From Deltaproteobacteria bacterium (GTDB lineage Bacteria; Bdellovibrionota; FAC87; UBA2466): DNA of 40,634 nt. A program made the translations under genes and the position numbers. Of the stretch, positions 6,624-23,377 are shown one piece after another. The stretch is from the NCBI GenBank assembly GCA_043776735.1, contig JAYVQZ010000008.1:1-40634 (forward strand), written 5' to 3'. Positions within the stretch are counted from its first letter, which is position 1, and the number at the start of each line of letters is the position of its first letter. The notes under the pieces are model-generated. The model worked only from the letters and a program-made list of their open reading frames with translations, ran no database searches and had not been told where the DNA came from.

Positions 6624-6924
6624 AAAGTGGAATGATGTTGGCGATTTGGAAAAGCGTTTTGGGCGAATGACCGTGGGGATGTTCGTAAAAGCATTTAGGG
6701 AGAGCGAAGGGTTGTCCCAATCCGAATACGCCCGAAAAGTTGGTCTTTCTCGGGCCAACCTCTGCGACCTAGAAAAGGGACGCAAACTAATCAGCCCTGA
6801 GCGTGCTGCAAAGCTGTCAAAAAAACTTGGGGTCCCCGAAAAGGTCTTAATTCAGTTAGCCATCCAGGACAGTCTTCACGCAGCAAGGCTGAAATACACG
6901 GTGGAACTTAAAGCAGCGTCGTAA
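6613..6924 (+). CDS. higA: XRE-family HTH antitoxin (HigA-like)
   Basis: The ATG at 6613 gives MSIKKW. HTH_3 pattern: LSQSEYARKVGLSRANLCDLEKGRKLISPERAAKLSKKLGV. The toxin-first gene order is typical of HigBA. Confidence 0.75.
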   Translation: MSIKKWNDVGDLEKRFGRMTVGMFVKAFRESEGLSQSEYARKVGLSRANLCDLEKGRKLISPERAAKLSKKLGVPEKVLIQLAIQDSLHAARLKYTVELKAAS

Positions 6925-7137
6925 CGCCCTTTCATGTATAACTTGTACCTACTAGTTAGTGGGTGGCAGAAATCCGTTACCCGCAAAATTACTACCCCCT
7001 AACGACTCAGCCCTACAGTTCATATCCTCGATAGCGCCTTTTTGCGGGATTTCTAACGGATTTCAAATTTATTTATTACGGCGCGTTGGGCTTGGGTTAT
7101 AGAGGGGGAACTGGCTGATGAATAGGAGTAATGAGTC

Positions 7138-7416
7138 ATGGGGAAGCTGATATTTAAAGACGATTTCCTAACCCCCGCCAACGTGCGACAGGAGCTTGCC
7201 TCCCTTGCCTCTGGCTTGTTCACCGCAATTGATGCGCTTCGAACCATTCCCAGGGATACGACAGCAGCCTTTTCCCTTTTGGACGGCACCGCTGAGAAGC
7301 TCAAAGGAATGTTGCTTGAGTTAGATAATTTCCAAGCGAATAAAGACAAGGTCGACAAAGATTTACTTTCCCTCTCCACAAAAAATTCAGCTGACACGGT
7401 AGAGACAAATAGCTAA
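7138..7416 (+). CDS. Small hypothetical protein (predicted helical)
   Basis: AGGAG lies 9 nt upstream of the ATG. No recognisable domain. The antisense ORF 7053-7397 has no comparable RBS. Confidence 0.4.
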   Translation: MGKLIFKDDFLTPANVRQELASLASGLFTAIDALRTIPRDTTAAFSLLDGTAEKLKGMLLELDNFQANKDKVDKDLLSLSTKNSADTVETNS

Positions 7417-7525
7417 GCAGTGCAATTGGTGAGCAACGTCCTTGGATAAGTGTGTCGGGCTGAGAAAATGAGAATTGCAGCCAAAACGTAGGAAGAGGTT
7501 TTTTCCAAAAAGCCGGGGGCGATTG

Positions 7526-9247
7526 TTAAGTCCGTAGGCCGACCGTTTCAATAGGCACAAAACCAGCCATAGCTTTTGGAAGTAGGCCGATGCCCAGGCG
7601 GCAGCACTCCGATAAAATCGTTGGGGCCTCATGATTACCGGTGACGAGAATGCTACTACCAACCAAGTTGAGGTCGGTGATAGCAGTAAGACCGTTTTCT
7701 GAGGTGCCTGCAAAGTGATGGTCGATTAGATACGTAGATTGTTTCGCGTGGCTTTCGCCCCCCACATAACTTCGAAGTTCACCGAGGGACGAAAGATGTA
7801 CTTCCTTGATATTTGTGCCCTGATTGGAAATCTCTTTAAATCGCTCGTGCCATATCTGATGGACGGAAACATCATCGTCTACAACGACAATGGTTTGACC
7901 TTCTTCGACTACGATCTCACGTACAAACCACTCTGGAGGATGCGCTTCGGGAATTACCAACCGTACTTTCGTTCCCTTTCCGTCGGAAGACTCAATTTCA
8001 AGATGGCCACCCCAAGACTCAATCGTCGTCTTAGCGTGAAATAGGCCAAGGCCAGTTCCGTCAATCTTTTCGAAAGTGGCCCCTCGACTGCCGAGCTTAG
8101 GCACGTGCTCATCGGCGATTCCTATTCCCGTATCACTAACTTCAACGATCACAGAGTCAGCGCTTCTACGAGCTGAAACAATGATGGTGCCTGCCTCAGG
8201 AATGGCGTCGACCGAGTTATTAATCAGGTTCGATAATAAACGCGCGAACTCAACTGGCTGAAGCTCAGCGAATAGACCGTACGAGGTAACGCCACGTTGG
8301 AGGCGGATCTCAAGGCCAGGGCGACCTTGGAACGTGACTATTTTTTCCGAAACAATATTTTCAAGAAAGGTAGCTACCAGTTGAACGCTTAGGGGCTCAG
8401 AACTCTCGATCAAATCACTATCTCTTGCGATGAGGTCTCTCTGTCGCTCCATTAGGCTGTTGGCAATATCGTTCACTCTGGCCACGGCACTCCGAGCAAG
8501 GCGTTGACTGGCTTCAGGGAGCTGGGAAATGTCTTCCAGAACAACGCTAAGGGCCATTAGAGGAGCCCTGATGTCGTGGGCTACTTGGGTTGCCATTTGT
8601 CCTATCGCTACGGACTTTGCAGACTCTATTTCTTTTAGACGCGCATTTGTTAGTTCATCTGTCAGGTTACGAATCCCGGTCAGCAAGCCGAACAGCCCTT
8701 TTGAGGAGCCCGCTTGGACACCCGCATTTTTAAAAAAATTACTTAGCGCCTCAAAGGAGGAACGCTCGAGCACCGAAATAAGCCGGAACGAAAAGAGGGA
8801 AGCCAAAAGGTAAAGGAGTCCCAGGAACAAAAAGAAACCAATCGGTGATTCATAGGGGCGGCACATCTCAATAACAAGCTTCACCGGCTTTGCTTCACGG
8901 AAGAGTTCTATTTGGCCCGAACTGCAGTGTGAGCTGGCTGCTTTTTTTCCCGATTCAAAATGATTTTCTGGACTAGTAATTTGCACAAATAGCTCAGAGA
9001 ATGCGCGTCCAATCCCTTCAACAAAAGACCTGTAATCTCCACGAGACAGATCGGAAAGGCGCGACCTGGTGAGCGTGTCCCTTTGCGAGTTAATCAACTT
9101 TTGATTCTCAGCGCCGCTAAACCGAACCACCGCAAACCCTGTAGCCAGGAGTACGGAGAAGGTGACCACATTGAAAATCAGCCATGCTCTCTTGGGCGGA
9201 ATAATCCGCATGGGGCTTCTTACGGCAGTCTTTTCAAGCAGATTCAT
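7526..9247 (-). CDS. Membrane-bound hybrid sensor histidine kinase (2 TM + HisKA + HATPase_c + receiver)
   Basis: TM helices AWLIFNVVTFSVLLATGFAVV and FFLFLGLLYLLASLFSF. H-box AHDIRAPLMAL. NLINNSVDA. DTGIGI. GTGLGLFHA. C-terminal VVVDDD...YLIDHHF...LVTGNHE...LLPKA receiver pattern. Confidence 0.9.
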   Translation of the reverse strand: MNLLEKTAVRSPMRIIPPKRAWLIFNVVTFSVLLATGFAVVRFSGAENQKLINSQRDTLTRSRLSDLSRGDYRSFVEGIGRAFSELFVQITSPENHFESGKKAASSHCSSGQIELFREAKPVKLVIEMCRPYESPIGFFLFLGLLYLLASLFSFRLISVLERSSFEALSNFFKNAGVQAGSSKGLFGLLTGIRNLTDELTNARLKEIESAKSVAIGQMATQVAHDIRAPLMALSVVLEDISQLPEASQRLARSAVARVNDIANSLMERQRDLIARDSDLIESSEPLSVQLVATFLENIVSEKIVTFQGRPGLEIRLQRGVTSYGLFAELQPVEFARLLSNLINNSVDAIPEAGTIIVSARRSADSVIVEVSDTGIGIADEHVPKLGSRGATFEKIDGTGLGLFHAKTTIESWGGHLEIESSDGKGTKVRLVIPEAHPPEWFVREIVVEEGQTIVVVDDDVSVHQIWHERFKEISNQGTNIKEVHLSSLGELRSYVGGESHAKQSTYLIDHHFAGTSENGLTAITDLNLVGSSILVTGNHEAPTILSECCRLGIGLLPKAMAGFVPIETVGLRT

Positions 9248-9399
9248 TGTTATGCGAAATAGCGAAATACTGAAGTTTAATCAATTATATTAAAAGTTTA
9301 GTTGTCGACCCTGTATAACCACTGGGAAGAATTGACATTATGCGTTATTAAAATCACATGGCTGTTTCTGCAATTATGCGAACGTACTGACAGGAAAAT

Positions 9400-10878
9400 A
9401 TGAGTCAATTCTGTAAGCGCTTGTTAGTTCTTCTTCTTTTTATCGGAGTATTTGAATGCGTAGGGAACTCGCCGAAAGATTCCAAAATATTGCGATGCGT
9501 ATTTCCGTTTAAGCATCTCAAAAAAGATCCAACATTAATTGATCCGGCAAATACGGTTAGTATTTATGAATACTATCTCTTGGAAAATCTGGGAGTTGGT
9601 TTAATCCGAGATGATGTCTCCGATCCGCGAGGATACAAGGGGGTCCTCTCTAGCCATTGGGAACAAGTTAGCCCCACCCATTGGTCTTTCACTTTGCGGG
9701 AGGGGATTAAATGGAGCGATGGAACTGACATTACCCCGCACGAAGTGGTGGAACGGTTTCAGACTCTAAAGACAACTAAAAGCCGTCATCTTCTTAATTT
9801 ATCTAGGTTGAAAAAGGTTGAGTTTGATCCGAAATCGAATTCGGTGAATTTCTATTTTAGGGAAAGTACCAACGATAGTTTTCTTCACGAACTGAGCTTG
9901 GCTGACGCCGTTTTGGTGAGCCCCCGTAACCTGACGCAGGATTGGAAGGTGACGTCTGGACCTTACTTCGTATCTAAATACATAACCGACGCAAAAACTC
10001 TGGAACTTACCGCAAACTCATTTAGCCCGCTGGCCTCAGCCGAGAGTCCAGGAAAAGTGTTGTTGTTCGATTTGCCCGAAAGTTCAACCTCTGAACTTTT
10101 TAAGACTATTGACGCAGATATTTACTCAATTGCGGTTTTGCCCTTCTCAAAGGAGCGTAAAGATCTAATTGCTCGGGCGCCCAGCCACACTTTTGGTCAA
10201 CCCACCCTAATATATTATTGGGAATTTAATCCTGAAAATCCGTTGACCAAGGATTTAAGTGCGCGCAAGGAGCTTGCCAGTTTAACCGCAGAAGTTTTTA
10301 AGAGCTTTTCCGTTGGGAAAGATGTCGCCTATTATTCGCAGTTAGTCTCTAAAGGGTACTCGGGAGTTCTAGACAGTTTTGAAGTTAAAGGGACGGATAC
10401 AAATCGCCTCCAGGGTCAGGAAATTCTCTTACGGTTTCGCCCCCCGTTCAAATACCTAACAACGGAAATCGAAGAGTTAAAAGCTGCGGCAGTCAAACGC
10501 GGGATTAAGCTTGTGGTGGCTTTTGATGCGTTCACGCCGGAAGAGAAGGCCGATACAAGAGAGTTTGCGCGGCTGCAGGGGTTCAAAGGAAATCAGAAGG
10601 ACTCGGTAGGAAGCTGGAGTTTTCTTTTTAGTGGTAAAGGAGCGCTAAGTCCTTTCAAGGAACCGTCTGAGAAGTATTTAAACGAAGTCTTAGACTCCGT
10701 TGCCGATGCGCAAAAGTCCCAGGCGCTGCTAAAACTCCATCGTTTTGTTTTGGAAAATGCATTCGTCGTGCCGTTTCTCGTACAGACCGAACACATCATG
10801 ACCAGCAAGCGTATCAATCTAACTCGCTGGAATCCATTCGACCTACGTCTCCGTTTTTATGACGTTGCCTGGCAGTGA
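9400..10878 (+). CDS. Family-5 (peptide/nickel/opine type) ABC substrate-binding protein homologue
   Basis: Signal peptide LLVLLLFIGVFEC. SBP_bac_5 hallmarks: SSHWEQVSPTHWSFTLREGIKWSDGTDITPHEVVERF and VTSGPYFVSKY. No permease or ATPase genes lie adjacent. Confidence 0.7.
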   Translation: MSQFCKRLLVLLLFIGVFECVGNSPKDSKILRCVFPFKHLKKDPTLIDPANTVSIYEYYLLENLGVGLIRDDVSDPRGYKGVLSSHWEQVSPTHWSFTLREGIKWSDGTDITPHEVVERFQTLKTTKSRHLLNLSRLKKVEFDPKSNSVNFYFRESTNDSFLHELSLADAVLVSPRNLTQDWKVTSGPYFVSKYITDAKTLELTANSFSPLASAESPGKVLLFDLPESSTSELFKTIDADIYSIAVLPFSKERKDLIARAPSHTFGQPTLIYYWEFNPENPLTKDLSARKELASLTAEVFKSFSVGKDVAYYSQLVSKGYSGVLDSFEVKGTDTNRLQGQEILLRFRPPFKYLTTEIEELKAAAVKRGIKLVVAFDAFTPEEKADTREFARLQGFKGNQKDSVGSWSFLFSGKGALSPFKEPSEKYLNEVLDSVADAQKSQALLKLHRFVLENAFVVPFLVQTEHIMTSKRINLTRWNPFDLRLRFYDVAWQ

Positions 10879-11553
10879 ATGAGCCTCGAAACAAAAAGCT
10901 GGCGGCCGACTCTACGTCTCTTTGCTAAGCAAGAAACCGAGTTTAAAGACCCGGATGGGAAAAACGCTTCTATACGATGGACGTTCGATTGCGAAAAAAT
11001 GCCGTTTTTTCTGAAACGGGTGCAGTGCACGATGTCAGGGTTCGGGCTAAAATCCGTCGGATTCTCTGCGGATTTCACGTTCATAAATGCCTCTCGCAAA
11101 GCGCTCGCCGAAGCGTGGGAACGTCTTTGGTATGAGCGAGTAAAATCAAAACAGATCGAGCTGCCGTTTCCTGTTTTATCTTCGAATGGTTTTGCTGCCG
11201 GACCATCGATGGAAATGGCTCGCGAATGGTCGAGAGGAGAGCTTATTGAACGAGCATTAGTACTTCATTGTTGGCATGAAATGAGCGGTTGGAAGTCTTT
11301 ACTCGCAAAACAGCCAGAAGTTTGGCTTTTCAAAAAATACCTGGCGCGGGACGGATGGAGTCTAAAGCTGTTTCAGCTAGGTGAGACTGAAAAGGGAAGC
11401 TCCCTAGCCGGGTTGGCTCAGCACGAGACAAAAGGATCTGTATTTGATTCCGTATACGCGCCACCGAATTCTTGCTCGGTGAGGAGCCTGCTTATTTCCT
11501 TGTTAAGAATGATCACGCAACCTACGGATTCACTGATATTACTTCCGGCATGA
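10879..11553 (+). CDS. Compact YcaO-superfamily protein, ending at an in-frame TGA (see extension 11554-11799)
   Basis: GFSADFTFINASRKALAEAWER matches the G..x..A..A..EA.ER pattern. SSNGFAAGPSMEMAREWSRGELIERALVLHCW matches the sNG.AaG...eA....E.iER....W pattern. The ATG abuts the SBP stop (TGAATG). Confidence 0.6.
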   Translation: MSLETKSWRPTLRLFAKQETEFKDPDGKNASIRWTFDCEKMPFFLKRVQCTMSGFGLKSVGFSADFTFINASRKALAEAWERLWYERVKSKQIELPFPVLSSNGFAAGPSMEMAREWSRGELIERALVLHCWHEMSGWKSLLAKQPEVWLFKKYLARDGWSLKLFQLGETEKGSSLAGLAQHETKGSVFDSVYAPPNSCSVRSLLISLLRMITQPTDSLILLPA

Positions 11554-11799
11554 GGCAGCCCAAAGGACCACGCGAGATTTTATCGTAATCCGAATAAGAA
11601 CGGAGCATTCGACTTTCTAGCGAATGCAGCCTTCCCAGCGAGCGCATTAGTCAGTCCGGAGCGTTTACTGACCGTAGAGCTTGCACAGCCAGGAGTTTTC
11701 CCCGCAGTCTGCGTCTCACATCATCCAGATTGGCCAGCCCTGGAGTGGGGTTTGAAATCGGTTTCTGGAAAGAACCCGTTCCCCCACCCCATTGCTTAA
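11554..11799 (+). other. Stop-free in-frame continuation of the YcaO-like frame (81 sense codons), ending ...GKNPFPHPIA
   Basis: Read by hand from TGA 11551-11553: GSPKDHARFYRNPNKNGAFDFL...HHPDWPALEWGLKSVSGKNPFPHPIA, stop TAA at 11797-11799. It is absent from the ORF track because it has no start codon. Confidence 0.55.
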
Positions 11800-11842
11800 C
11801 AAAAAGGTAGCAGGCCAGCTCAATTTCAACGGTTGAGATTGC

Positions 11843-11864
11843 CACCAGCCTTTTGGGGCTGGTG
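11843..11864 (+). terminator. Hairpin downstream of the extended YcaO-like frame
   Basis: CACCAGCC-TTTTGG-GGCTGGTG forms an 8-bp perfect stem. There is no strong T-tract after it. Confidence 0.3.
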
Positions 11865-12114
11865 ACAAATCATTTACCTCGGGAGTGTGGTTATTTTCGG
11901 CAGCTTTGGGGTGCCTAGAATCAGTGCAGCTGTTAATAAATTTTGACAGGGGCATGGCTGTGCACAGGCAGAATACACCTCTAAATATTCGTAATTGCAT
12001 GGTTTAATCAAATATCGGAAATGGGGGTTTGGCACCGACTTTGCAGACTACCTAAGTATTAATTTCATCGACACACAACCTTTAGTCAGCCTCTCCGGCA
12101 CCCCAGAACCCCGA

Positions 12115-12813
12115 TTGAAACCGCATTTTACTTTGCGGGCATTGAGCGTTGGTTTTTGGCTCACCTTAATCGTGGCGGTTGTCGGCTGTGGATCCAAACA
12201 CAATACCTGGCCAGCCCATGTGGCCTCAATTTCCGGATTTTCCGATGCCGAACGCCTGCAAATAATGGCCGCGGTGAACCAGATGAACGACGCCGCGGAT
12301 CAGCCTCTTCTTATTCTAGACAACTCAGCTCCCGCAAACGCCTATACGATTACCATCCAAAAGCATGAGGCATGGACCGATTCCAAAGTGGGCCTCTCCC
12401 ACCGAAGTGAAGAAAATTGCGCGATTGAAATCTCTAGCGAGCTTTTTGAATCCCATTTAGCAGGCTTTTTAGATACGACAGTGCGCCACGAATTTGGGCA
12501 TTGCACTGGTCTGGGTCACAGTTCAGAAAAAGGGGCCTTGATGTTTGCCACCTCGGTAGCCTTCGATGCCTACAGCGATTCTGCCCTAGACGAATTTTTC
12601 GCCGATATGCAAAAATCCGTGGCTCCCGCATACCGCGGCGAAGGAAATGCTCCGGCAACAACCACCGCCACCTCTGATCTCCAAAAAACGACCGATACCA
12701 CCACCACTCCGCCATCCGATAAGCCTCCCGTGTCCCCCTCTCCCCAAGGGGACGGTTCCCATGACCACCGCTCCCACGGCCGCGGCTCCCACGAGCATCA
12801 TCATCACCATTAA
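12115..12813 (+). CDS. Metzincin-type zinc metalloprotease lipoprotein with a Thr/Pro linker and a His-rich C-terminal tail
   Basis: HEFGHCTGLGH matches HExxHxxGxxH, with a downstream ALMF as a possible Met-turn. The in-frame TTG at 12115 gives KPHFTLRALSVGFWLTLIVAVVGC, a lipobox-type signal. The ORF track starts at ATG 11995. The tail is HDHRSHGRGSHEHHHHH. Confidence 0.7.
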   Translation: MKPHFTLRALSVGFWLTLIVAVVGCGSKHNTWPAHVASISGFSDAERLQIMAAVNQMNDAADQPLLILDNSAPANAYTITIQKHEAWTDSKVGLSHRSEENCAIEISSELFESHLAGFLDTTVRHEFGHCTGLGHSSEKGALMFATSVAFDAYSDSALDEFFADMQKSVAPAYRGEGNAPATTTATSDLQKTTDTTTTPPSDKPPVSPSPQGDGSHDHRSHGRGSHEHHHHH

Positions 12814-12968
12814 TTTAAAGCCGTTCACAGCGAAGAGAGACCCCCCCAAAAAAGTCCTAAAAATGATCCCTTTTTTGAATTGGGCATCCTCTTTGCAATG
12901 GGGTTTCTAGGTAAGGCTGGAACAGGGGGGAATAACAATGCTACAAACTCCACAGGTGAGAAGACAAA

Positions 12969-13877
12969 ATGAGTGATTCCCTGGTCTCCAATACAATAAA
13001 TCCGCTCAAACAGGCCCTAGCGCTAAAACCGATATTCCCCGGGGGAATTCGGCGGGTTTGCTACCCCACGGCAACGATCGATCTTAAAGGCGAAGTGGCC
13101 CGTCACCTCACTACGCGCGGGGTGACCGATCAACCGCTGCCTTTAGAGACCCTTCAGCTACGAGTTAGCGCAGAAAATCAAATTCCTAAGGACGGCCCCC
13201 TTAGTCCCATTTCCTTGCAGCTTGAATTTACCGAACCCGGCGTCCAAAAGGCTTACCGCAAACTCGTGGGTTACTTAGCCCAAGAGGTTCTCGGATTTGA
13301 CGTCGTTTTTGAACGCAGCCCTTTTCTTCGCTTTCACTTTCCCGCCCGCCTGCCCGACAAATACCGCTCGACCGGGGGGGTAATCCTGGCTCATCATAGC
13401 GATACCTTATTGGGAGACTACTTTGAGCAGATCAACTGCTGGCTCCCCTTAAGCACCTGCGCGGGAACCCGCTCCTTGCAAATAGCCTCCTTCGACGACA
13501 GCATCGGCATTCTCACCGAGTTTGGCCGAGGTCTCGACTTCGATCTTTCCCGCTTCGCCCAGGCCAGACAGCCCTTTTATGATCGGCTTTATTCCGACGA
13601 TGCTTTTCAACAACGGGTTCTGCAAGCTTGCCACCCCTTGGAGACCCAATACGGAGAGGTTGTCCTCTTTGACCCTCGTACCATCCACGCCACGGCCGAA
13701 AACTTAGACACCCAAACCCGGGTGAGCATCGACTTTCGTTTGATCCCTCTCACCGCCTACAATGAGATCATGGAACGGTTTCGTAGCGAAGGAAAAACAC
13801 CGGTGGAGTTTGAAGGGCAGTCGCTGGCACGCGGAGGGTACTTCGATGTGAAGACCGCCTTTGAGGCCCTGGAGTGA
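12969..13877 (+). CDS. Fe(II)/2-oxoglutarate-dependent oxygenase (PhyH-like fold)
   Basis: HHSD provides an HxD motif, with a distal His in DPRTIHATAEN and an Arg in TRVSIDFR. This spacing fits the 2OG-oxygenase facial triad plus the 2OG-binding Arg. Confidence 0.55.
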   Translation: MSDSLVSNTINPLKQALALKPIFPGGIRRVCYPTATIDLKGEVARHLTTRGVTDQPLPLETLQLRVSAENQIPKDGPLSPISLQLEFTEPGVQKAYRKLVGYLAQEVLGFDVVFERSPFLRFHFPARLPDKYRSTGGVILAHHSDTLLGDYFEQINCWLPLSTCAGTRSLQIASFDDSIGILTEFGRGLDFDLSRFAQARQPFYDRLYSDDAFQQRVLQACHPLETQYGEVVLFDPRTIHATAENLDTQTRVSIDFRLIPLTAYNEIMERFRSEGKTPVEFEGQSLARGGYFDVKTAFEALE

Positions 13878-16800
13878 ATCTTTCCCGGTTTCTCAGTAAC
13901 CTTTTTGTCTCCTGGATAAGGCCCCTTCTTACGGCAGGATCCCAACGAAAGCTGACCCTTGCGGATTTTCCCGTTGAGCTTGGCAAAGAGTCCGTCAATC
14001 GCTGCGCTGACGAATTGGTCCGCGCGCTGGAGGCGACGCCAAACGACCCTCTTTCTAAAACGCTTGGGAAAGTCTACCGGGGAATCCTCAGTGGGGCACT
14101 GTTACTAGGGTTGCTTCATGCGGTAACAAGCCTTGCGCTTCCCTTTTTACTTCAAGCGTTCCTCAATGACCTGAGCACTTCGGTAGCCCCACTTTCCCAA
14201 AAAATCTTGCTAGCCCTCTCCCTTTTTTCCATGAGCCTTCTCTCCTGGTTGCTCATCCAGCACTGCTTTTTTGTGGGCGGTAGACTGGCCCTTCGCGTTC
14301 GAGCAGGCCTTGTCAATGCCATCTATAAAAAGCTATTGGGAAGCTCACCGGCAAACGACGATTCCTCCTCTGCCTACTTCAACTTGATCGCACGAGATGC
14401 CCTTAAGGTGGGCTCAGCCGGACAGATGTTGGTACTCACCGTGATGTCGCTCGTGCTTATCGTTGGCGGTGTGCTTCTGCTCTATCAAATTGTAGGAGTT
14501 TCTAGCCTTGCTGGGTTTTTGGTCTTAGTCCTATTGGCCCCTCTCTACCGGAAGCAGGCGCGGGCGATGGAGGCTACGACCGGCGATCTGTTTCATATCT
14601 CCGATCGTCGAGTGGGGTTTCTCTCCGTCGTCTTTCAAGGGATTCGGGCAATTAAATTGGCCGGCGTTGAATCCATCCTTGGAGATCAGGCCCGAAAGAT
14701 CCGAGCCCAAGAGTTAGTAAAACTAAACCGTATTGCCATTCAAACCGCGTTCTTAAACCTTCTGTTTCAAAGCAGCCCCATCGCGGTGGCTTTAGTCACT
14801 TTCACTACGGCAGCCTTGTTGGGTCGGCAGCTTGGACTGCCGGAGGTTTTGTCCGCCCTTGCCACGTTTGCCATCCTGCGAGCCCCTCTGCTGCACCTTC
14901 CCAATCTCATCGTCGCTCTTTTAGAAGGACGAGTTTCTCTTAATCGAATTGAGTTGGCTCTGCGCGGACAAGAGCGGCTTCCTGTGACGGCTGGGACAGC
15001 GCCCCTGGGATCGGTTTCTTTAAAAGCCGCGACATTTAGTTGGAAAACTCAAGGCAAAGCGGTCCTTTCTGAAATCTCGTTAGAGATTACGCCTGGCGAG
15101 TTGGTGGCTGTTTTAGGGCCGGCCGGCAGTGGCAAAAGTTCCCTGCTCCATGCCCTCCTTGGTGAAATGGGCGTTCAAGAGGGAGAGGCCGCCCTATCGG
15201 GCGAAGTCTCCTACTCCTCCCAACAGCCGTGGATGGTCAATTCGACAGTAAAAGAGAATATCGTTTTTGGAGCGGAGTGGAATTCTGCCCGCTACAGCGA
15301 GGTAATCTCAGTCACAGGCCTTGAGCGCGACTTGGCTCAGTGGGCTTCGGGCGACGCTACGGAAGCTGGGGAAAACGGCCTGGCCCTTTCCGGAGGTCAA
15401 CGCCAGCGCATTGCCTTAGCCAGAGCCCTTTATCGAAACGCCGATCTCTGCCTCCTCGATGATCCGTTTAGCTCCCTCGATAACCGGACGGCCACCCACT
15501 GTTTTGAAAAGGGAGTGCTGGGATTTCTTAAAGGGGCCACACGAATCCTGGTCACCCACCGGCATGATTTTGCCCAGCAGGCCGACGTGGTTTTGTGGAT
15601 TAAAAATGGCCGTATCGTTCGCAGCCTAAGAGGTCAGCAGATTAAAAAGCTTCACGAAATTCCTGCAGAAGTTGCCCCTGAGCCAACTCGGGCGTTAGAG
15701 CGGGCGCCTGCCAGAGGCATGATCACGGCAGAAGCCGATGCGGAGGGCTCGGTCCCCTTGGATCGTTACCGCCAGTACGGCGCAATGCTCGGAAGTTCTT
15801 TAGTCTTAGCCTTAATCCTTGGGATCTTTTTGCTACGGGAAGTTTTTAACGTGGGGGCCGATACCTGGATCTCCTATACGACGGCACGTGCTGGGATCAC
15901 GCCCACAATCATTTTAAGTGGGTTTGCACTCTTGGGCCTGCTGACCTCGGTGGCCACTTACGTGCGATCGCGCATGGTCATGGCAAAAACGGTAGTCGCT
16001 GCAGGGACCCTTCACGAGGGCATGCTCAGCGGGGTTTTAAATTCACCATTCTCTTTTTTTGAGGCCAATCCCTTAGGCCGGCTGCTCAATCGTTTTGGAA
16101 AAGACCAGGCAGCAATCGATCTCGAGGTCGGCACAAAAACCCTAGAGTGCCTCAATGTGATCTTTCTCTTAGGCTCAAGCCTTATCCTAATCGTGGTGGC
16201 CACGCCCGTGGCTGTGTTGGTGATGTTTCCTCTGGGGGTGGTCTATTACCGTTTGCAACTCTTTTTTAGAGCCACATCACGCCAGATAAATCGAATGGAA
16301 GCGCTTTCCCAATCCCCGCTTTTCGCCCACGTTTCAGAAACTCAAGGAGGACTGACGACGATTCGGGCGATGAGGCAGCAGGATCGGTTTCGGCAGGGAT
16401 TGAGCGAGCGGCTTGAGATCAACCAACGAATTCTAATCGCCCGCTTGGCCGCCGATCGTTGGCTCAGCATTCACCTAGACTCTTTGGGGGCGCTTTTGGT
16501 GGGCATCACCGCCGTATTAGCTGCCTGCTTTAGCGATGCCATTGGTTGGGAGCTAGCGGGACTCTCTGTCACCCATGCGCTTGCCGTGACGGTGACTTTT
16601 GCCAGAGCAGTCCACACCTTTGCCGAACTCGAATGTGGCATGAACTCCGTAGAGCGGGTGCAAGAGTATGCAGGACTGCCGGGGGAAGGGTTCAAGGGAA
16701 ATGGCCAGCCCGCCTCTCCTCCAGTTCAGTGGCCTGACGCAGGAAGAGTGGAAATTAAAGACTTGGAACTGCGGTACCGCCCCGATCTCGAGCCCTCGTT

Positions 16801-17449
16801 GAAAGACATTTCCTTCACCATCGGCGCAGGTGAAAAACTCGGCGTGATTGGTCGCACCGGCTCGGGCAAGAGCAGTTTGTTATTGGCCATTTTCCGGCTG
16901 GTGGAACCCACCGGCGGTAACGTTTTTATCGATGGCATCGACGTAAAAACTTTGCCTTTGGCGGTGCTTAGATCCCGTCTAGCCATTCTGCCGCAGGAGC
17001 CCGTTCTGTTTCCGGGTCCTCTGCGCAGTAGTCTAGATCTCAAAAATGAGTATTCCGATAGCGAGATTTGGAAGGCCCTTAATGCGGTTCAAATGAAAGA
17101 GGCGGTAGAGTCATTGCCCGGCGGCCTGAGTTTGGAACTTCAGCCCGATCTGTTTAGCCTGGGGCAGCGACAACTACTCTGTCTGGCTAGGGTCATTCTA
17201 CGAAAGCCCAAAATTCTTTTTCTTGATGAGGCCACCGCTAATCTCGACCCCACCGCCGATAAACTGGTGCAGGATGCCGTGGAGCGCGAGTTTGCTCACT
17301 CTACCGTCATTACCATTGCCCATCGCCTACAGACCCTCTCACGCGCCCATCGGATCGTAGTCATGCAGGATGGCCGAGTGGCTGAAATCGGGACGCCTAC
17401 TGAGCTCTCTCAAAAATATCCTGAGTTGCAACGGGGAGGTGCGGCATGA
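13874..17449 (+). CDS. Full-length (TMD-NBD-TMD-NBD) ABC transporter of the ABCC/MRP type
   Basis: N-terminus FLSNLFVSWIRPLLTAGSQRKLTLADF. NBD1: GPAGSGKSS, LSGGQRQRIALARALY and LCLLDDPFSSLD, with Asp in place of the catalytic Glu. NBD2: GRTGSGKSS, FSLGQRQLLCLARVILRKPKILFLDEATANLD. The start overlaps the upstream stop by 4 nt. Confidence 0.9.
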   Translation: MNLSRFLSNLFVSWIRPLLTAGSQRKLTLADFPVELGKESVNRCADELVRALEATPNDPLSKTLGKVYRGILSGALLLGLLHAVTSLALPFLLQAFLNDLSTSVAPLSQKILLALSLFSMSLLSWLLIQHCFFVGGRLALRVRAGLVNAIYKKLLGSSPANDDSSSAYFNLIARDALKVGSAGQMLVLTVMSLVLIVGGVLLLYQIVGVSSLAGFLVLVLLAPLYRKQARAMEATTGDLFHISDRRVGFLSVVFQGIRAIKLAGVESILGDQARKIRAQELVKLNRIAIQTAFLNLLFQSSPIAVALVTFTTAALLGRQLGLPEVLSALATFAILRAPLLHLPNLIVALLEGRVSLNRIELALRGQERLPVTAGTAPLGSVSLKAATFSWKTQGKAVLSEISLEITPGELVAVLGPAGSGKSSLLHALLGEMGVQEGEAALSGEVSYSSQQPWMVNSTVKENIVFGAEWNSARYSEVISVTGLERDLAQWASGDATEAGENGLALSGGQRQRIALARALYRNADLCLLDDPFSSLDNRTATHCFEKGVLGFLKGATRILVTHRHDFAQQADVVLWIKNGRIVRSLRGQQIKKLHEIPAEVAPEPTRALERAPARGMITAEADAEGSVPLDRYRQYGAMLGSSLVLALILGIFLLREVFNVGADTWISYTTARAGITPTIILSGFALLGLLTSVATYVRSRMVMAKTVVAAGTLHEGMLSGVLNSPFSFFEANPLGRLLNRFGKDQAAIDLEVGTKTLECLNVIFLLGSSLILIVVATPVAVLVMFPLGVVYYRLQLFFRATSRQINRMEALSQSPLFAHVSETQGGLTTIRAMRQQDRFRQGLSERLEINQRILIARLAADRWLSIHLDSLGALLVGITAVLAACFSDAIGWELAGLSVTHALAVTVTFARAVHTFAELECGMNSVERVQEYAGLPGEGFKGNGQPASPPVQWPDAGRVEIKDLELRYRPDLEPSLKDISFTIGAGEKLGVIGRTGSGKSSLLLAIFRLVEPTGGNVFIDGIDVKTLPLAVLRSRLAILPQEPVLFPGPLRSSLDLKNEYSDSEIWKALNAVQMKEAVESLPGGLSLELQPDLFSLGQRQLLCLARVILRKPKILFLDEATANLDPTADKLVQDAVEREFAHSTVITIAHRLQTLSRAHRIVVMQDGRVAEIGTPTELSQKYPELQRGGAA

Positions 17450-18435
17450 GCGCGACTCTCCTAGAATCCCCCCTCGCTTGCGAGGCCTTTGGACAACTTT
17501 TTCGAAAGCTTTACGGGGTGTCCGGGTCCATTCTGCCCTTGGGGCAGTTGCTTCACTGGCGCAACCGTCTGGGGATAGCCACCCCTGAACTAGATGCTAT
17601 TCCCACTTTTGTCTTTGGCGGATACTTTTATGGCTTTTCCTCCCCAGTGCCCGAGCAGGCCGAGCTAAGCGAAGTGTCCCGTTTGGTGCTTGGCAAAACC
17701 GCAGGCCAAATTTTGGTTCCCTGCGTACGCGAAGGGGTGAACGTAGACGCCTTAGTCGCAGAGGGTTTTCAAAAACTACCCTGGTTTGTGGAGTCTGTTT
17801 TTGAGATCGATAAGGGCGTAGAAGCTGATTTGGCCTCTCGAGTCTCTCGAAATCAAAGGCGCGATATCCTACGTTTAACTCGTCGTTCGGAAGAGCAGTT
17901 TGAACTTCAACTTTTCGAAGGAGAGGCCCTACGCCAAAACCCCTGGGTATTTGCCAAGGCGGCAGAACTCCACGCCCACAATCTGACCAAGTACAGCCAC
18001 GCCCTTAACTTCTATAGCCAAGAGATCCTCACTCTTCTCCTCCATTCGGGGTTAGCCGAACACCTGCTGATTGCGTTGCGAAAAGACAAGAATGGAGAAT
18101 TTGTCCAGGCCTCTGTTAATTTTATCGATCGCCCACGTAAACAGCTCTTTCTCATGGTGCAGGGGATCAACCGCGATCTCGTTCCCCCAGGACAAAACCT
18201 CTACCTAGCTGAGACCTATCAGCTTTATCAGTTTGCTCAAAAGCAGGGGATCCAAGAGGTCTACTTGGGGCGGGGAGGCCAAGAGGCCAAACAGCGAATG
18301 GGCGCCAATCGTTTTCATCTTTTGAATTTATGGATTAAAAGTCAAGGGCAGGCAGCTAGCGAATTTGCCGCCATTGTCGAAAAATCTCAGTCGGTGCTGG
18401 CAACGCTTCCGCCAGACCTAAGGAGCCAAGAATGA
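17446..18435 (+). CDS. GNAT-fold transferase (FemAB / BioF2-like, Acetyltransf_6-type)
   Basis: The pattern SRNQRRDILRLTRRSEEQF...FIDRPRKQLFLMVQGINRD...YLGRGGQEAKQRMGA resembles the Acetyltransf_6/FemAB-like family. It has 4-nt overlaps with both neighbours. Confidence 0.45.
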   Translation: MSATLLESPLACEAFGQLFRKLYGVSGSILPLGQLLHWRNRLGIATPELDAIPTFVFGGYFYGFSSPVPEQAELSEVSRLVLGKTAGQILVPCVREGVNVDALVAEGFQKLPWFVESVFEIDKGVEADLASRVSRNQRRDILRLTRRSEEQFELQLFEGEALRQNPWVFAKAAELHAHNLTKYSHALNFYSQEILTLLLHSGLAEHLLIALRKDKNGEFVQASVNFIDRPRKQLFLMVQGINRDLVPPGQNLYLAETYQLYQFAQKQGIQEVYLGRGGQEAKQRMGANRFHLLNLWIKSQGQAASEFAAIVEKSQSVLATLPPDLRSQE

Positions 18436-18770
18436 GCCTTCCGCATATTTTGATGATCGGTGCCTACGATGACTACATGGGAGCCTTTGGATCTCTGGGC
18501 ATTCGCCTCACGCTCTTTCAGAAAGAGGATTCCCTCACCCCTTTGCAAACGGCCACAGCAGAGAAGGTTTTCACCCTTAATTATGAAAATGTTGAGGAGT
18601 GCCTTCGGTTTGCCATCGCCCGCCATGAAACGGCGCCGTTCGATGGCGTAGTTTCTTTTACAGAGTATGGCCTTGAGGCGGCAGCCCGGATTCAAAACGT
18701 ACTGCGCGTTCGGGAAAACCCATGGCTCCGGTTAAAGCCACTCGCGATAAAACGGAAATGCGACGGCTGA
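18432..18770 (+). CDS. Pre-ATP-grasp N-terminal domain, probably the 5' part of a frameshifted ATP-grasp ligase gene
   Basis: ILMIGAYDD...VVSFTEYGLEAAARIQNVLRVRENP looks like the Rossmann-like N-domain of an ATP-grasp enzyme. Meaningful similarity ends at about 18720, where the frame of 18722-19633 takes over. Confidence 0.5.
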   Translation: MSLPHILMIGAYDDYMGAFGSLGIRLTLFQKEDSLTPLQTATAEKVFTLNYENVEECLRFAIARHETAPFDGVVSFTEYGLEAAARIQNVLRVRENPWLRLKPLAIKRKCDG

Positions 18771-19633
18771 TTTCTCACCTCGACGTGGGAAGGGCCGAGT
18801 TTATGCTCTGTTCTCATTTTGAAGACCTCGCGGCGTTCTGGCACAAGTTGAATGGACCGCTTATTCTAAAGCCCGCCAAAGGATCGGGAAGCGAAGGGGT
18901 GTCACTCATCCGGCGAACGGAAGAGCTTGCTAAGGCCTGGGTTCGCAGCACAGCGCCTAAGGTAATGCCGCTTATTGCCGAGGAGTATTTCGACGGGCCG
19001 GAGTTTAGCGTTGAGTCGCTCACCGTGGACGGCACGCATGAGATTCTTGCGGTCACTCAAAAAATCACCACGGGAGAATTAGGCTTTGTTGAGACCGGAC
19101 ATCAAATGCCGGCGCCGATATCAAAAGCCGTCTTCCAACAAATGGCCACTTCGGTTACGCAGTTTTTACAAGCCGTTGGGCATGCCGTTGGTCCGGCACA
19201 CACCGAGCTTCGCCTTACTGCAAAAGGACCCCGAATTATTGAAAGCAATACCCGACCAGGCGGCGATTTTATTTGGCAGATGGTTGAACTGGTCTGCGGG
19301 GTGGATCTCGTAGCGGCCACACTCGCGGATTTAGCTCACGTCCCCCAGCCAAAGAGAAAGCCCGTGGCCCCGGCGGCAGCGGTTCGGTTTTTTGCCTACG
19401 CCAATGGGCGAGTCACCCATTTAGACCAAACAGAAAAAGCCGCAGAGCTTCCCGGCATCGTTCGTTTTCATTGCAGCCTCGCCGTCGGCGCAGAGCTGGG
19501 CCCGCTGAGATCCTCAGACGATCGCCAAGGATTCGTGGTGGCGATCGGGGAAAGTCTGGCTCAGGCTATGGAGCGGGCTGACAATGCTATCGCCGCGGTC
19601 CGCCTCGAGCTTGCTCCCCAGACAGCCCAGTAA
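18722..19633 (+). CDS. ATP-grasp ligase core (L-amino-acid-ligase-like)
   Basis: ATRDKTEMRRLI, LILKPAKGSGSEGV, IAEEYFDGPEFSVE, HTELRLTAKGPRIIESNTRPGGDFIWQMVELVCGVDL. Confidence 0.75.
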   Translation: MAPVKATRDKTEMRRLISHLDVGRAEFMLCSHFEDLAAFWHKLNGPLILKPAKGSGSEGVSLIRRTEELAKAWVRSTAPKVMPLIAEEYFDGPEFSVESLTVDGTHEILAVTQKITTGELGFVETGHQMPAPISKAVFQQMATSVTQFLQAVGHAVGPAHTELRLTAKGPRIIESNTRPGGDFIWQMVELVCGVDLVAATLADLAHVPQPKRKPVAPAAAVRFFAYANGRVTHLDQTEKAAELPGIVRFHCSLAVGAELGPLRSSDDRQGFVVAIGESLAQAMERADNAIAAVRLELAPQTAQ

Positions 19634-20662
19634 GCGATTATTGCAGGCTTTAGTGCCCACCGAAATGCGCAGGGAATTGGGCAGGGCAAATGAGCTATCA
19701 GCCACAAGAATTCCACCCTCCAAAAGAGCGTTGTAGGCCTTGCGCCCATTTTCAAACTGAACCAATAAAAAATTGGAGTCGCTAGGCAATACGCGAATCA
19801 CTCCTGGCAATTGCTCTAGGCCAAGCGACAATCGATTGCGCTCTTTTACCAGGCACTCCACCTGTTCTTTCATCATGGAGGCGTTGGACAGCTTCACCGC
19901 CACGGCATGTTGTGCCGCCTGATGAAACGCAAAGAGGGGCTGCAACCGCTGGACGGTATCGATCACCTTCGCGTTAGCTAGCAGGACACCAGCGCGTAGG
20001 CCGGCTAGCCCCCAGGCCTTGGAGAAGGTTCTTACCACCACAAGGTTAGCGTACTGGCGAAGCAACGATAGGCTTGAGGCCTTCTGAGAAAATTCGATAT
20101 AGGCTTCGTCAACGACGACTAGGCCGGGCGCTTTGGCGAGCAGCGTTTCTACTTGAGAGATCGAGATCGAAGTCCCCATCGGGTTGTTGGGAATGCACAA
20201 GAAGATGAGTTTTGCCCCAGTAGCCACAAGATCATCGGTACTGGTGATATCAAACTCTGTTCCCTGCAAAGGCACTTCACGAACCTCTACCCCGTGCGAT
20301 CTTGCGCAGTGGGCGTAGAAGGGAAATGTGGGGCTTGCAATAGCAATGCTGTCTTTTCCCGGCTCGCAGAAGGCTCGGATCATTAACTCCAAGGCGGCAA
20401 TGGAACCCGGAGTAAAAAGCACCTCCTGGGGACCCGCCAAGTTTAAGTAACAGGCCAGTTGCTCTTGCAGCCTCACGGGAGCCGGATTGGGGTACTCGCT
20501 ATAAACGCCACCATACGGATTGGTATTGGAGTCGAGCCGAATCAGATCTTTCTTATAAAGCGCGGCCCTACGAATTGGATCGAGTATGGGGAGAGTTTTT
20601 ACACATTCCCGAGCCAGAGGGTGAAGGGTTTCTCCTGCAGGAGGTTGAAGCACAACGCTCAT
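19514..20662 (-). CDS. HisC-like class II PLP-dependent aminotransferase
   Basis: LDSNTNPYG. The PLP-lysine motif is VVRTFSKAWGLAGLRAG. SLRISVGT. I prefer the ATG at 20662 (MSVVLQPP), which overlaps the upstream stop by 4 nt. The 3' end overlaps the convergent ATP-grasp gene by 120 nt. Confidence 0.8.
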   Translation of the reverse strand: MSVVLQPPAGETLHPLARECVKTLPILDPIRRAALYKKDLIRLDSNTNPYGGVYSEYPNPAPVRLQEQLACYLNLAGPQEVLFTPGSIAALELMIRAFCEPGKDSIAIASPTFPFYAHCARSHGVEVREVPLQGTEFDITSTDDLVATGAKLIFLCIPNNPMGTSISISQVETLLAKAPGLVVVDEAYIEFSQKASSLSLLRQYANLVVVRTFSKAWGLAGLRAGVLLANAKVIDTVQRLQPLFAFHQAAQHAVAVKLSNASMMKEQVECLVKERNRLSLGLEQLPGVIRVLPSDSNFLLVQFENGRKAYNALLEGGILVADSSFALPNSLRISVGTKACNNRLLGCLGSKLEADRGDSIVSPLHSLSQTFPDRHHESLAIV

Positions 20663-21744
20663 AAATAGTTTCCTTTCGTCTGATCTGAGGTGACCGCAAT
20701 TTCGGCCATTCGGGCGCAAAGCGTATTCATCATATCCCAGCCCTGTTTTTGGACCGTCTCAAGCCGCGTCAGGGAATGGGGATCTAGGTTTGTCAGTAGT
20801 GAGATTCCCATGGTCTCGTGAATCTGATCTCCGTCGTGATGAGTGGCAAAATGGTCGGTCTCTCTGAATTTCGACATGATGGGATGGGCAACGATGTGAA
20901 AAACCGTAGCCGCTGCCTCCAGTACCAAGTGCACTAGGACCAGCTTTTCGGCATTGTCGAGAGTGAGCATTTTCCAGGCAAACCAGCTGGAGGTGGCCTC
21001 TAAAATGGGGTCCCAAACCTTCAACAGGCCCTCGCCCCGATCGCTTGCGAGATTTTCGTTATGCCCAAACTCCTCTTTGAGGTGGTCTTGAAAAATGCCA
21101 GAGTATCTAGGGTCCTCGCAAAAGGCGGAACGGGCAAGCACGGCCCGCTGAAAGAAGTTGGACCACACCTGAATGGTATCAAGCAAGCGGCCTCGCTGAA
21201 TGGGATCATTGACTGCATCCCCAGTAACAAAATTGAAGATGAGATTGTTTTTGTAGGCTTCTCGGTAGATCCGGTTTTTTTCCAGAAGTACAGCCAGCGG
21301 ATCTTTGGCCACTTCAAAGCTCACCCGCGCTTTGTTGCTGTTTTCGTAAAGGCCGTGTCCTTCAAATTGAATGGAAAGGGCCCAGAAGCCTTCTGGCCCT
21401 CCGGTAAATCCATGGTAGGTGTCGCTGTCGACCAGAACTAGGTCGCCTTCTTTAAAAGTAAACTCCGCAGCGCCGTTGGCTTTCCCTGTTCCCTTGGCCA
21501 CGACAATAAAACTCTTTGTGGGATGAATGTGAGTGGCTAAGGATTGGCCATTTTCTAAATGAACCCAGGCCAAAGAAAGGCGCGCAGACTCCGGAATAAA
21601 GGCTGCCACCAGAGGGTGCTTGCGAAAGTCTTTTAGTTGGCCAAGCGAGTGTTCCACGCCGTCCTGAACCACGGAGCGGAGCGTGGGGAGCTCCTCTCGC
21701 GTGATCAGGCGCATCTCACCCTTGGGTAGTGGTGCTAATTTCAT
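20659..21744 (-). CDS. Fusion of an N-terminal cupin and a C-terminal heme-oxygenase-like diiron oxidase/oxygenase (HDO) domain
   Basis: Cupin: GQSLATHIHPTKSFIVVAKGTG and GDLVLVDSDTYHGF, a 3-His type. HDO-like: FQDHLKEEFGH, LVLEAAATVFHIVAH, and ATHHDGDQIHE, which contains H-x3-D-x2-H. Confidence 0.6.
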   Translation of the reverse strand: MKLAPLPKGEMRLITREELPTLRSVVQDGVEHSLGQLKDFRKHPLVAAFIPESARLSLAWVHLENGQSLATHIHPTKSFIVVAKGTGKANGAAEFTFKEGDLVLVDSDTYHGFTGGPEGFWALSIQFEGHGLYENSNKARVSFEVAKDPLAVLLEKNRIYREAYKNNLIFNFVTGDAVNDPIQRGRLLDTIQVWSNFFQRAVLARSAFCEDPRYSGIFQDHLKEEFGHNENLASDRGEGLLKVWDPILEATSSWFAWKMLTLDNAEKLVLVHLVLEAAATVFHIVAHPIMSKFRETDHFATHHDGDQIHETMGISLLTNLDPHSLTRLETVQKQGWDMMNTLCARMAEIAVTSDQTKGNYL

Positions 21745-22406
21745 AAATTTCCTTTTCCATTTCGTTCAATTGACCAATGAATTTCAGAAACCCGCGCCAC
21801 CAGGCAGTCGTCTAGACCCACCTGGTGGCAATAACTTTGCACTTCGTTCACCGTCAGCGCGGCCCTTAGGGATTGGGCAAAAAGCTGACGTTGGTAGCTG
21901 CTGTTTCCTACGGTGTACTTGTCTACGAGAGATTGCCACTCGCTCTCGGAATCTGGCCGCACCAGATCCTTGATCAAAATTGCCGCCCTGGTTTGGGCAA
22001 GACGGGCCAGTTGAATGAAGAACGAGATCGTGTCCGGGATGTGGTGGACGATGCTGTTGGAAAGGATCAGATCGTAGTCCTTTCGGCAGAGAATCCGACT
22101 CTTGACGTTTTCATAGACGAGAGTGATCTGACGCCCTAAACCCGCGGCGGTGACTTTTTTAGTCGCCAACGCAAGCATCTGACTAGAAAGATCTACCGCC
22201 GTAATCTGTAGTCCCGGTATCTTAGTGGCTAACCGGAGAGGAATGTCTGCAGTGCCCGTTCCTAAGTCGATGGCTGAGTTGGCAACTGGCGCCAATGCTA
22301 CGGCTCTCAGGGCAAACTGTTCATTGACCGCACTATTGTCGATGCTGTCGTATTCGATGGCGTCCTCTGCGGTATCCATGACTTCGGGCTCTAGAACTCG
22401 AATCAC
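21741..22406 (-). CDS. Class I SAM-dependent methyltransferase
   Basis: Motif I is AIDLGTGTADIPLRL. Post-I is ITAVDLS. LILSNSIVHH. It has 4-nt overlaps with both neighbours. Confidence 0.8.
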   Translation of the reverse strand: MIRVLEPEVMDTAEDAIEYDSIDNSAVNEQFALRAVALAPVANSAIDLGTGTADIPLRLATKIPGLQITAVDLSSQMLALATKKVTAAGLGRQITLVYENVKSRILCRKDYDLILSNSIVHHIPDTISFFIQLARLAQTRAAILIKDLVRPDSESEWQSLVDKYTVGNSSYQRQLFAQSLRAALTVNEVQSYCHQVGLDDCLVARVSEIHWSIERNGKGNL

Positions 22407-23272
22407 TGTTGTCTCCCCTGGTGTTGAAGCTCCACTAAGTCGGTAATCGCCTGGTCCACTTGTTCCAGATTGTTTACGACAAAGAGCTGTTCTTGATGAC
22501 GAGAGATATGAAAACTCTGTTTGAGCACTTCGCTTAGAGAAAATGGCTTAATCACCGTGTTGCCAGCGATCAAAGACGCCCCTTCTCTAGGGGAGGAGAG
22601 CAGGCCTGCCCCCCAAATGCGGTAGTCTTCTACGGTACCCACCAACCCAAACTCCACCGTCCAAAAATAGAGCCGTTCTAAAAGAGTCTGTTCGCTAGGG
22701 CTCCTCTCCAAAGACGCCACAGCCCCGGCTACCCGTTGTTCGGCCTGGGCTTTGTCGACTGGAGAACTCTTTTCCTGGGCATTGAGTTGGGAGAGCGCGA
22801 CATTAGCGTCATAGAGGGCCACGTCCTCGGCGGTGGACCTGGTTTGTAAGCCCAGTTCCGCAAAGCGTTTAATCAAAGAGCGGTACTCGTTGCTAAACAT
22901 CAAAGGAAGGTGGCCTATCAGATCGTGAATGCGATCGGGAACGGGCGAGTGACAAACATCTTTGGCAGCACGGACATTGTGGGCCAGAGGAAATATCTGC
23001 TGGCTCTGCATTGAATGATAGTTCCCATAGGGGACGTACCCTTCTACAAACTTAGCGCTCCAGCCAAACGATTGGAGTCGCTCTTCAACATGATTTCTGT
23101 CAGGCAATCGGTTCGGGTCAAATTCACATTGTTCCATGCCTGCCAGATAGCGAGGATCTAGCTGATGAGAAACTTGAGAAACAAAAGAGGAATGAGCTCT
23201 TTTAAATTGGGACCAAACAAGGTCACACTCTGAAGCAAAGGCTATATTTGAAATTTCGAACATTTCGGCCAC
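22403..23272 (-). CDS. phhA: Pterin-dependent aromatic amino acid hydroxylase (phenylalanine-4-hydroxylase family)
   Basis: PDRIHDLIGHLPLMFSNEYRSLIKRFAELG contains H-x4-H. LYFWTVEFGLV supplies the Glu ligand. The start may be the ATG at 23263, with GGAG 8 nt upstream. Confidence 0.85.
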   Translation of the reverse strand: MAEMFEISNIAFASECDLVWSQFKRAHSSFVSQVSHQLDPRYLAGMEQCEFDPNRLPDRNHVEERLQSFGWSAKFVEGYVPYGNYHSMQSQQIFPLAHNVRAAKDVCHSPVPDRIHDLIGHLPLMFSNEYRSLIKRFAELGLQTRSTAEDVALYDANVALSQLNAQEKSSPVDKAQAEQRVAGAVASLERSPSEQTLLERLYFWTVEFGLVGTVEDYRIWGAGLLSSPREGASLIAGNTVIKPFSLSEVLKQSFHISRHQEQLFVVNNLEQVDQAITDLVELQHQGRQQ

Positions 23273-23377
23273 TCCCCACTTCCCCTAACTACTGCCTTAG
23301 CAAGAAGTATGCTCAGGCAAAAAAAATGTTTTTGCCGACCGGGATCGGAAAAAATGGCCCCAGTGGTAGCAAGAAAC

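Follow-up and report, generated by a model that had tools for sequence, protein, structure and literature searches.

The ABCC branch of the ATP-binding cassette (ABC) proteins, which includes the medically central MRP1, CFTR and SUR, is treated in the literature that we searched as a eukaryotic invention. Asymmetric ATP sites also occur among the bacterial ABCB-like type IV exporters TM287/288, BmrCD, LmrCD and the fused Rv0194, in which one degenerate and one consensus site drive export; to our knowledge, these exporters do not carry the N-terminal lasso motif. The full ABCC structure is held to have arisen before the last eukaryotic common ancestor (LECA), on the eukaryotic stem, by the fusion of two diverged half-transporters, and the prokaryotic relatives mentioned in that account are half-size only (Xiong et al. 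2015, PMC4649718). No paper describing a bacterial full-length ABCC protein was found in the literature searched, which is not proof that none exists. Here, we describe a gene at positions 13874–17449 (plus strand) of a 40,634-nucleotide contig, JAYVQZ010000008.1 (hereafter the window, meaning the whole stretch that was analyzed), which belongs to the metagenome-assembled genome (MAG) of a Deltaproteobacteria bacterium (GCA_043776735.1). The gene encodes an ABCC/MRP-type full-length transporter of 1191 residues with the asymmetric nucleotide-binding domains (NBDs) of that family. The explanation that we favor, with a probability of roughly 0.75, is that the protein is a functional short bacterial ABCC from an old, purely bacterial clan of proteins of ~1200–1260 residues, and most likely the exporter of the product of the biosynthetic cluster in which its gene lies.

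The gene is the sole long reading frame in its interval and runs uninterrupted from a GTG at 13874 to a TGA at 17447–17449. Pfam identifies two ABC_membrane (PF00664) and two ABC_tran (PF00005) domains in the product, and an AlphaFold2 (AF2) model was built on a 42-sequence alignment (predicted local distance difference test, pLDDT, 86.9; predicted template-modeling score, pTM, 0.80). Both bear out the description given in the initial annotation, which was made from the DNA letters alone, of a single polypeptide in which each of two transmembrane domains (TMDs) is followed by an NBD. The order is lasso-TMD1-NBD1-TMD2-NBD2, and the model comprises three short N-terminal helices, 6 + 6 long membrane helices, two NBDs and a disordered linker (residues 593–614, where pLDDT falls below 50). 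The L0/lasso-like region occupies residues 1–60 (13874–14053; helices 6–10, 13–24 and 41–54 in the model) and has no TMD0 ahead of it. TMD1 follows at residues ~61–363 (14054–14962), with its six long helices at 69–101, 107–156, 165–207, 210–255, 266–315 and 322–363, and then NBD1 at residues ~379–590 (15008–15643). A short linker of ~38 residues (591–628; 15644–15757) leads to TMD2 (residues ~629–933; 15758–16672), which holds the ABCC-typical motifs FFEANPLGRLLNRFGKD and SQSPLFAHVSE, and the protein ends with NBD2 (residues ~957–1185; 16742–17428). All of these segments lie on the plus strand.

The two NBDs differ in the manner of the ABCC family. In NBD1 (Walker A GPAGSGKS at 415, Q450, signature LSGGQRQ at 505, H562), the Walker B motif LCLLDDPFSSLD spans residues 525–536 and yields Asp529-Asp530 (codons at 15458–15463, plus strand), so that Asp530 stands where the catalytic Glu is usually found. 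In NBD2 (Walker A GRTGSGKS at 993, Q1041, degenerate signature FSLGQRQ at 1094, H1150), the Walker B motif ILFLDEATANLD spans residues 1114–1125 and yields the canonical Asp1118-Glu1119. As in ABCC proteins, the degenerate elements (Asp530 of NBD1 and FSLGQ of NBD2) belong to one composite ATP site and the canonical elements (Glu1119 of NBD2 and LSGGQ of NBD1) to the other. Between the Lys of Walker A and the Gln of the Q-loop, NBD1 has a spacing of 29 residues and NBD2 one of 42, values identical to those in the aligned ABCC2, YCF1 and plant ABCC3 sequences; an NBD1 that is 13 residues shorter is a hallmark of the MRP family. All the motifs that the initial annotation had quoted are thus found where they should be, and the degeneracy of NBD1 is conserved in the family: across 201 relatives with two recognizable NBDs, the position following the NBD1 Walker B is D in 188, S in nine and E in four, while the catalytic Glu of NBD2 is kept in 200 and the third residue of the NBD2 signature is a residue other than Gly in 200. 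All 19 homologues extracted from the phylum of the window combine LLDDPLSAVD in NBD1 with DEATASVD in NBD2. The initial annotation had taken this asymmetry as the hallmark of MRP, CFTR and SUR proteins; it does accord with ABCC membership, although the trait by itself is not specific to eukaryotes, as TM287/288 illustrates.

Comparisons with profiles and solved structures lead to the same family. The best NCBIfam model is TIGR00957 (MRP) at 758 bits, with CFTR at 490 and MsbA at 345. In a phmmer search of the PDB the top 60 matches are all eukaryotic ABCCs, the best being ABCC2 (E = 4e-208), followed in order by MRP1, ABCC3, plant ABCCs, MRP4, SUR, Ycf1, MRP5 and CFTR. With the AF2 model as the query, the top 50 Foldseek matches are likewise all eukaryotic ABCCs, with template-modeling (TM) scores of up to 0.90, and VIA-align gives Z scores of 40–47 to eukaryotic ABCCs over model residues 1–1190. 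These structural alignments begin at residue 210 of MRP1, 219 of SUR1, 212 of Ycf1, 195 of ABCC2 and 13 of MRP4, that is, in the L0/lasso region just past TMD0; the protein therefore counts as a 'short' ABCC, one that lacks TMD0. They also sustain the ABCC-type N-terminus that had been proposed, in which NLSRFLSNLFVSWIRPLLTAGSQRKLTLADF pairs with ABCC2 residues 197–226, a stretch too short to score significantly alone. Going by the habits of the family, the protein would be expected to use ATP to export organic anions or conjugates.

Its closest relatives are nevertheless bacterial. A word-indexed search and an exhaustive search of representatives agree that the nearest relatives are proteins of 1165–1286 residues with 36–43% identity (800–1030 bits), and that eukaryotic ABCCs rank behind them (30–38% identity, at most 690 bits). 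The named near relatives come from Sorangium spp. (complete 13-Mb genomes; WP_272094182), Fluviispira spp. (WP_186646180), a Roholtiella cyanobacterium (Roholtiella sp. LEGE 12411) and 'Pseudomonadota' MAGs, and some bacterial relatives are already annotated in the databases as 'subfamily C (CFTR/MRP)'. The gene is the sole ABCC-like gene in its own MAG (4.1 Mb, 90.5% complete, 5.85% contamination), and it was not found in the three genomes of the same genus or the 33 of the same family that were searched. Elsewhere in the phylum, 47 of 400 other genomes carry a homologue of 1200–1260 residues with 30–33% identity, concentrated in two families (35/53 and 7/100 genomes); two ABCC-like paralogues occur together in a single genome of the phylum (G072:C1:1229909-1233508 and 1766399-1769596). 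At E values of 1e-100 or better, no homologue was detected in two samples of 251 genomes each, one from the phylum to which a Polyangiales MAG belongs (presumably Myxococcota) and one from that of a Nostoc genome (presumably Cyanobacteria), and the family is therefore sporadic outside the phylum of the window. A word-limited search for relatives of the N-half that are half-size and not fused returned only four fragments, two of which are partial fungal entries, and no pre-fusion intermediates. The double-length proteins P0122 (2602 residues), P0127 (2478 residues) and P0123 (1917 residues), which rank among the best-scoring representatives and consist of two tandem ABCC units each, probably arose when tandem eukaryotic ABCC genes were merged into one gene model. 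A contig scan with the full-length alignment was uninformative on ABCC-like genes, since it recovered only generic Walker and signature patterns and ordinary ABC exporters (24–41% identity).

Phylogenetic analysis separates the bacterial proteins from those of eukaryotes. In a tree of 50 full-length sequences (24 bacterial and 26 eukaryotic; posterior mean site frequency (PMSF) C20 model, SH-aLRT branch supports), a single branch with a support of 100 parts the two groups, and the window protein falls into an eight-member bacterial subclade (100) with proteins from Roholtiella, Sorangium and metagenomes. A 269-sequence FastTree, which included all suitable proteins from the two homologue searches, among them short ABCCs from oomycetes, amoebozoans and red algae, unites the 44 bacterial sequences in one clan (99) with no named eukaryote inside it. 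The protein thus sits in a clade of fused bacterial exporters, which is half of what the initial annotation had named as grounds for refuting its claim; the other half, a lack of affinity to eukaryotic ABCCs, does not apply, since the N- and C-halves of these proteins group specifically with the matching ABCC halves. To place a root, the proteins were split into N- and C-halves, bacterial half-transporters were added as the outgroup, and trees of subsets were inferred under LG+F+G4 with ultrafast bootstrap (UFBoot). N-halves form one group and C-halves another, each with a support of 100 and with bacterial and eukaryotic sequences together, apart from the bacterial half-transporters; fusion and NBD asymmetry therefore predate the bacterial/eukaryotic split. 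Three clans emerge overall (a Bdellovibrio-type clade, the clade of the window protein and the eukaryotes), with no firm root common to the two halves. The N-half trees recover monophyletic eukaryotes (98) and place the root on the Bdellovibrio-type clade (UFBoot 100), so that the bacteria become paraphyletic there, while the C-half tree recovers a single bacterial clan (99) and a root among eukaryotic C-halves with supports of just 19–50. The Bdellovibrio-type clade may have been drawn to the outgroup by long-branch attraction.

These trees bear on how a bacterium came to encode such a protein. The suggestion that the gene was acquired from a eukaryote, made in the initial annotation, is not supported. 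A recent horizontal acquisition would fit the observation that the matches among solved structures are all, and those in sequence databases mostly, eukaryotic ABCCs, and the failure to find the gene in the genus and family genomes searched; it is highly improbable given that the closest relatives are bacterial (36–43% identity, compared with 30–38% for eukaryotes), that the bacterial clan excludes every named eukaryote down to the protist short ABCCs, and that the gene has no introns and is host-like in codon usage and GC content. Relative to 1323 long open reading frames (ORFs) of the genome, its GC content is 0.543 (z = +2.0), its third-position GC content (GC3) 0.571 (z = +1.5) and its codon-usage distance at the 10th percentile, and the mildly raised GC content is common to the gene and the neighboring cluster genes, so composition gives no hint of a recent foreign, let alone eukaryotic, origin. 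The contig itself carries leuS-lptE-holA and is therefore a genuine Gram-negative bacterial contig; its GC content agrees with that of the genome.

A transfer at greater depth deserves more weight, though we consider it doubtful. One ancient eukaryote-to-bacterium transfer could have given rise to the entire bacterial clan, with later spread from one bacterium to another, so that the protein would be remotely eukaryote-derived. The attachment of the outgroup among eukaryotic C-halves, beside a single bacterial clan, points that way, as do the position of the bacteria next to ABCC10/MRP7 in the midpoint-rooted full-length tree (support 90) and the universality of the family in eukaryotes set against its patchiness in bacteria, including the two empty samples of 251 genomes. 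It is opposed by the weakness of the supports for a root inside the eukaryotes and by the N-half trees, which give monophyletic eukaryotes and a root on a bacterial branch. On those same N-half trees rests the converse proposal, also tentative, that the bacterial ABCC-like clan is the source of the eukaryotic ABCC family and not derived from it; the C-half tree neither backs it nor rules against it. The heterofusion of two diverged half-transporters, the lasso and the pair of degenerate and consensus sites might then all be bacterial inventions passed on to the eukaryotic stem before LECA, an extension that we hold just as tentatively, and Bdellovibrio-, Oligoflexia- or myxobacteria-type lineages are possible, if uncertain, candidates for the inventors. 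A bacterial source, if true, would contradict the view of an origin on the eukaryotic stem (Xiong et al. 2015, PMC4649718). The coherence of the bacterial clan makes the origin of the ABCCs testable in either direction, from bacteria into eukaryotes or the reverse.

The genomic setting of the gene suggests what the transporter may be for. It is the second gene of a plus-strand operon and overlaps both of its neighbors by 4 nucleotides, as had been noted initially: the GTGA at 13874–13877 joins its start to the stop of a 2-oxoglutarate-Fe(II) (2OG-Fe(II))/PhyH-like oxygenase gene (12969–13877), and the ATGA at 17446–17449 joins its stop to the start of a gene for a 329-residue protein with no Pfam family (17446–18435). 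Operon coupling with the biosynthetic neighbors through these overlaps is evident, and the overlaps on both sides argue for co-transcription; a promoter and terminator scan of 12700–19900 gave no signal above shuffled expectation. The fourth gene of the operon resembles ATP-grasp L-amino-acid ligases (18432–19633, plus strand) and is present as two overlapping ORFs in different frames, 18432–18770 (ATPgrasp_N) and 18722–19633 (ATP-grasp_4 and LAL_C2), a split that reflects either a frameshift or an assembly error. A convergent operon on the minus strand (19514–24382) encodes, according to Pfam and NCBIfam, an aminotransferase, a cupin-diiron oxidase, a methyltransferase, an aromatic amino acid hydroxylase and an O-methyltransferase; in related clusters, the 329-residue protein gene is a conserved companion of the cupin-diiron oxidase gene. 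The cluster region (12000–20000) has a GC content of 0.52–0.56, mildly above the 0.50 of the genome and of the window outside the region. Around the cluster, the window also contains a hybrid histidine kinase gene (7526–9247) and an orphan SBP_bac_5 gene just upstream (9400–10878) that is GC-poor (0.452, z = −2.5). At 38401–40044 lies the gene of a 547-residue Kelch-repeat beta-propeller protein that matches Pfam models of the KLHDC2/KLHL20 and Attractin/LZTR1 types, a second 'eukaryote-flavored' domain protein of the contig.

The coupling by overlaps inside a biosynthetic operon makes the role of cluster exporter or self-resistance pump, as initially proposed, a reasonable one; a conserved co-occurrence of transporter and cluster, which would have strengthened it, was not found. 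We infer that the protein is most likely the exporter of the cluster product, itself probably a small molecule made from a modified aromatic amino acid (a peptide or a signal), and export may also protect the producer. The core of cupin-diiron oxidase and 329-residue protein has homologues in three genomes of the same family (G005, G021 and G024), accompanied by an aminotransferase in two of them and also by an O-methyltransferase in one of these two. In two, a Peripla_BP_6 protein and a histidine kinase directly follow the core pair (G024:C1 6454-11451 and G021:C3 9139-13939), which hints that the pair makes a sensed signal molecule. The absence of the ABCC gene from the 33 same-family genomes searched, including the three with the core cluster, makes it look like an accessory recruit, an addition to this version of the cluster. 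A comparable arrangement occurs in a metagenomic locus (L103; Ga0214923_10002458, 3958–15217), where a bacterial ABCC-like gene for 1249 residues is part of a tight co-directional operon with a ketosynthase, a methyltransferase, a glycosyltransferase, a UbiA prenyltransferase, an ABC-2 transporter pair and SCO1/SenC. Recruitment of ABCC-like genes into biosynthetic operons is thus recurrent, and not the rule.

Several observations weigh against a functional bacterial ABCC that exports the cluster product. The protein does not reach the curated cut-off of TIGR00957 (1470 bits) and is therefore not an orthologue of animal MRP1; the apparent frame split of the ATP-grasp ligase means that the cluster may not be fully functional; and the core clusters of G005, G021 and G024 contain neither an ABCC-like gene nor an ABC exporter among the genes scanned. 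In a metagenome scan with an ABCC-specific TMD2 segment, whose listed matches were mostly eukaryote-like or fragmentary loci, homologues of the cluster genes of the window stood near none of 80 ABCC-like loci, L103 included, among the matches listed, and a scan with the 329-residue neighbor gave no match. Some other bacterial ABCC-like genes adjoin housekeeping genes, among them cysS and leuA, from which a general detoxification role is possible. Such a detoxification or housekeeping efflux pump, placed in the operon by chance and with no specific tie to the product, would also account for the core clusters that lack the gene and for the 35 of 53 genomes in one family of the phylum that carry a homologue, which suggests a core function there. 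We regard it as unlikely here because the gene overlaps both biosynthetic neighbors, shares its slightly raised GC content with the cluster genes, and is missing in those genomes of the genus and family in which this expanded cluster is lacking. That the protein might be no pump at all, and instead act as SUR or CFTR do, as a regulator or a channel, is barely credible: the structural alignment to SUR1 and SUR2 equals that to pumps (Z = 44–45), but the protein has neither a TMD0 for partner binding nor an R-domain (its linker has ~38 residues), no channel partner gene lies nearby, and its consensus ATP site is intact.

For the favored reading, a bacterial ABCC that exports the cluster product, a working cycle can be proposed by extension from the family. 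Two ATP molecules would bind at the interface of NBD1 and NBD2. At the first site, formed by the Walker A and B motifs of NBD1 (with Asp530) and FSLGQ of NBD2, ATP would be bound and scarcely hydrolyzed; at the second, formed by the Walker A and B motifs of NBD2 (with Glu1119) and LSGGQ of NBD1, hydrolysis would reset the pump. The switch from the inward- to the outward-facing state would expel the substrate from the cytoplasm or the inner leaflet. A protein of an old bacterial clan, and of no eukaryotic lineage, would in this manner export the product of the operon into which it is coupled, and may shield the producer. The gene would accordingly mark the likely export step of an uncharacterized cluster with an aromatic-amino-acid-derived product, and a compact, TMD0-less bacterial homologue with a lasso and asymmetric sites could offer a model of the ABCC mechanism that is easy to express.

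Among described transporters, the closest in architecture are ABCC4/MRP4 and ABCC5/MRP5, which share the lasso-TMD1-NBD1-TMD2-NBD2 order without TMD0, the asymmetric ATP sites and the 13-residue-shorter NBD1. Bovine MRP4 (8sx7) matches the AF2 model in Foldseek with a TM score of 0.88 and a root-mean-square deviation of 3.9 Å, and human MRP4 (8i4a, 8iz8 and 8iz9) aligns from its residue 13 with Z scores of 42.7–43.1. The window protein differs from ABCC4 and ABCC5 in sequence (~31% identity), in its far shorter NBD1-TMD2 linker (~38 residues), and in its bacterial host, its operon setting and its separate bacterial clan. The long ABCCs (MRP1/ABCC1, ABCC2, ABCC3, Ycf1 and SUR1/2) give the best sequence scores (E of ~1e-208 to 1e-167) and the best Z scores (40–47), and have the core and lasso in common with the window protein; they carry in addition a TMD0 of ~200 residues that it lacks, so that alignments start at target residues 195–220. 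Branches of ~1.7–1.8 substitutions per site (support 100) lie between the bacterial half-transporters used as outgroups and both ABCC halves, and the protein scores less than half as much with MsbA-type models as with the MRP model. Its nearest counterparts are the other bacterial ABCC-like proteins (Sorangium, Fluviispira, Roholtiella and Bdellovibrio-type), which are uncharacterized and vary in genomic context, with only some in biosynthetic operons, and which, at 1165–1286 residues, have the same motifs and fall into the same clan as the window protein in every tree.

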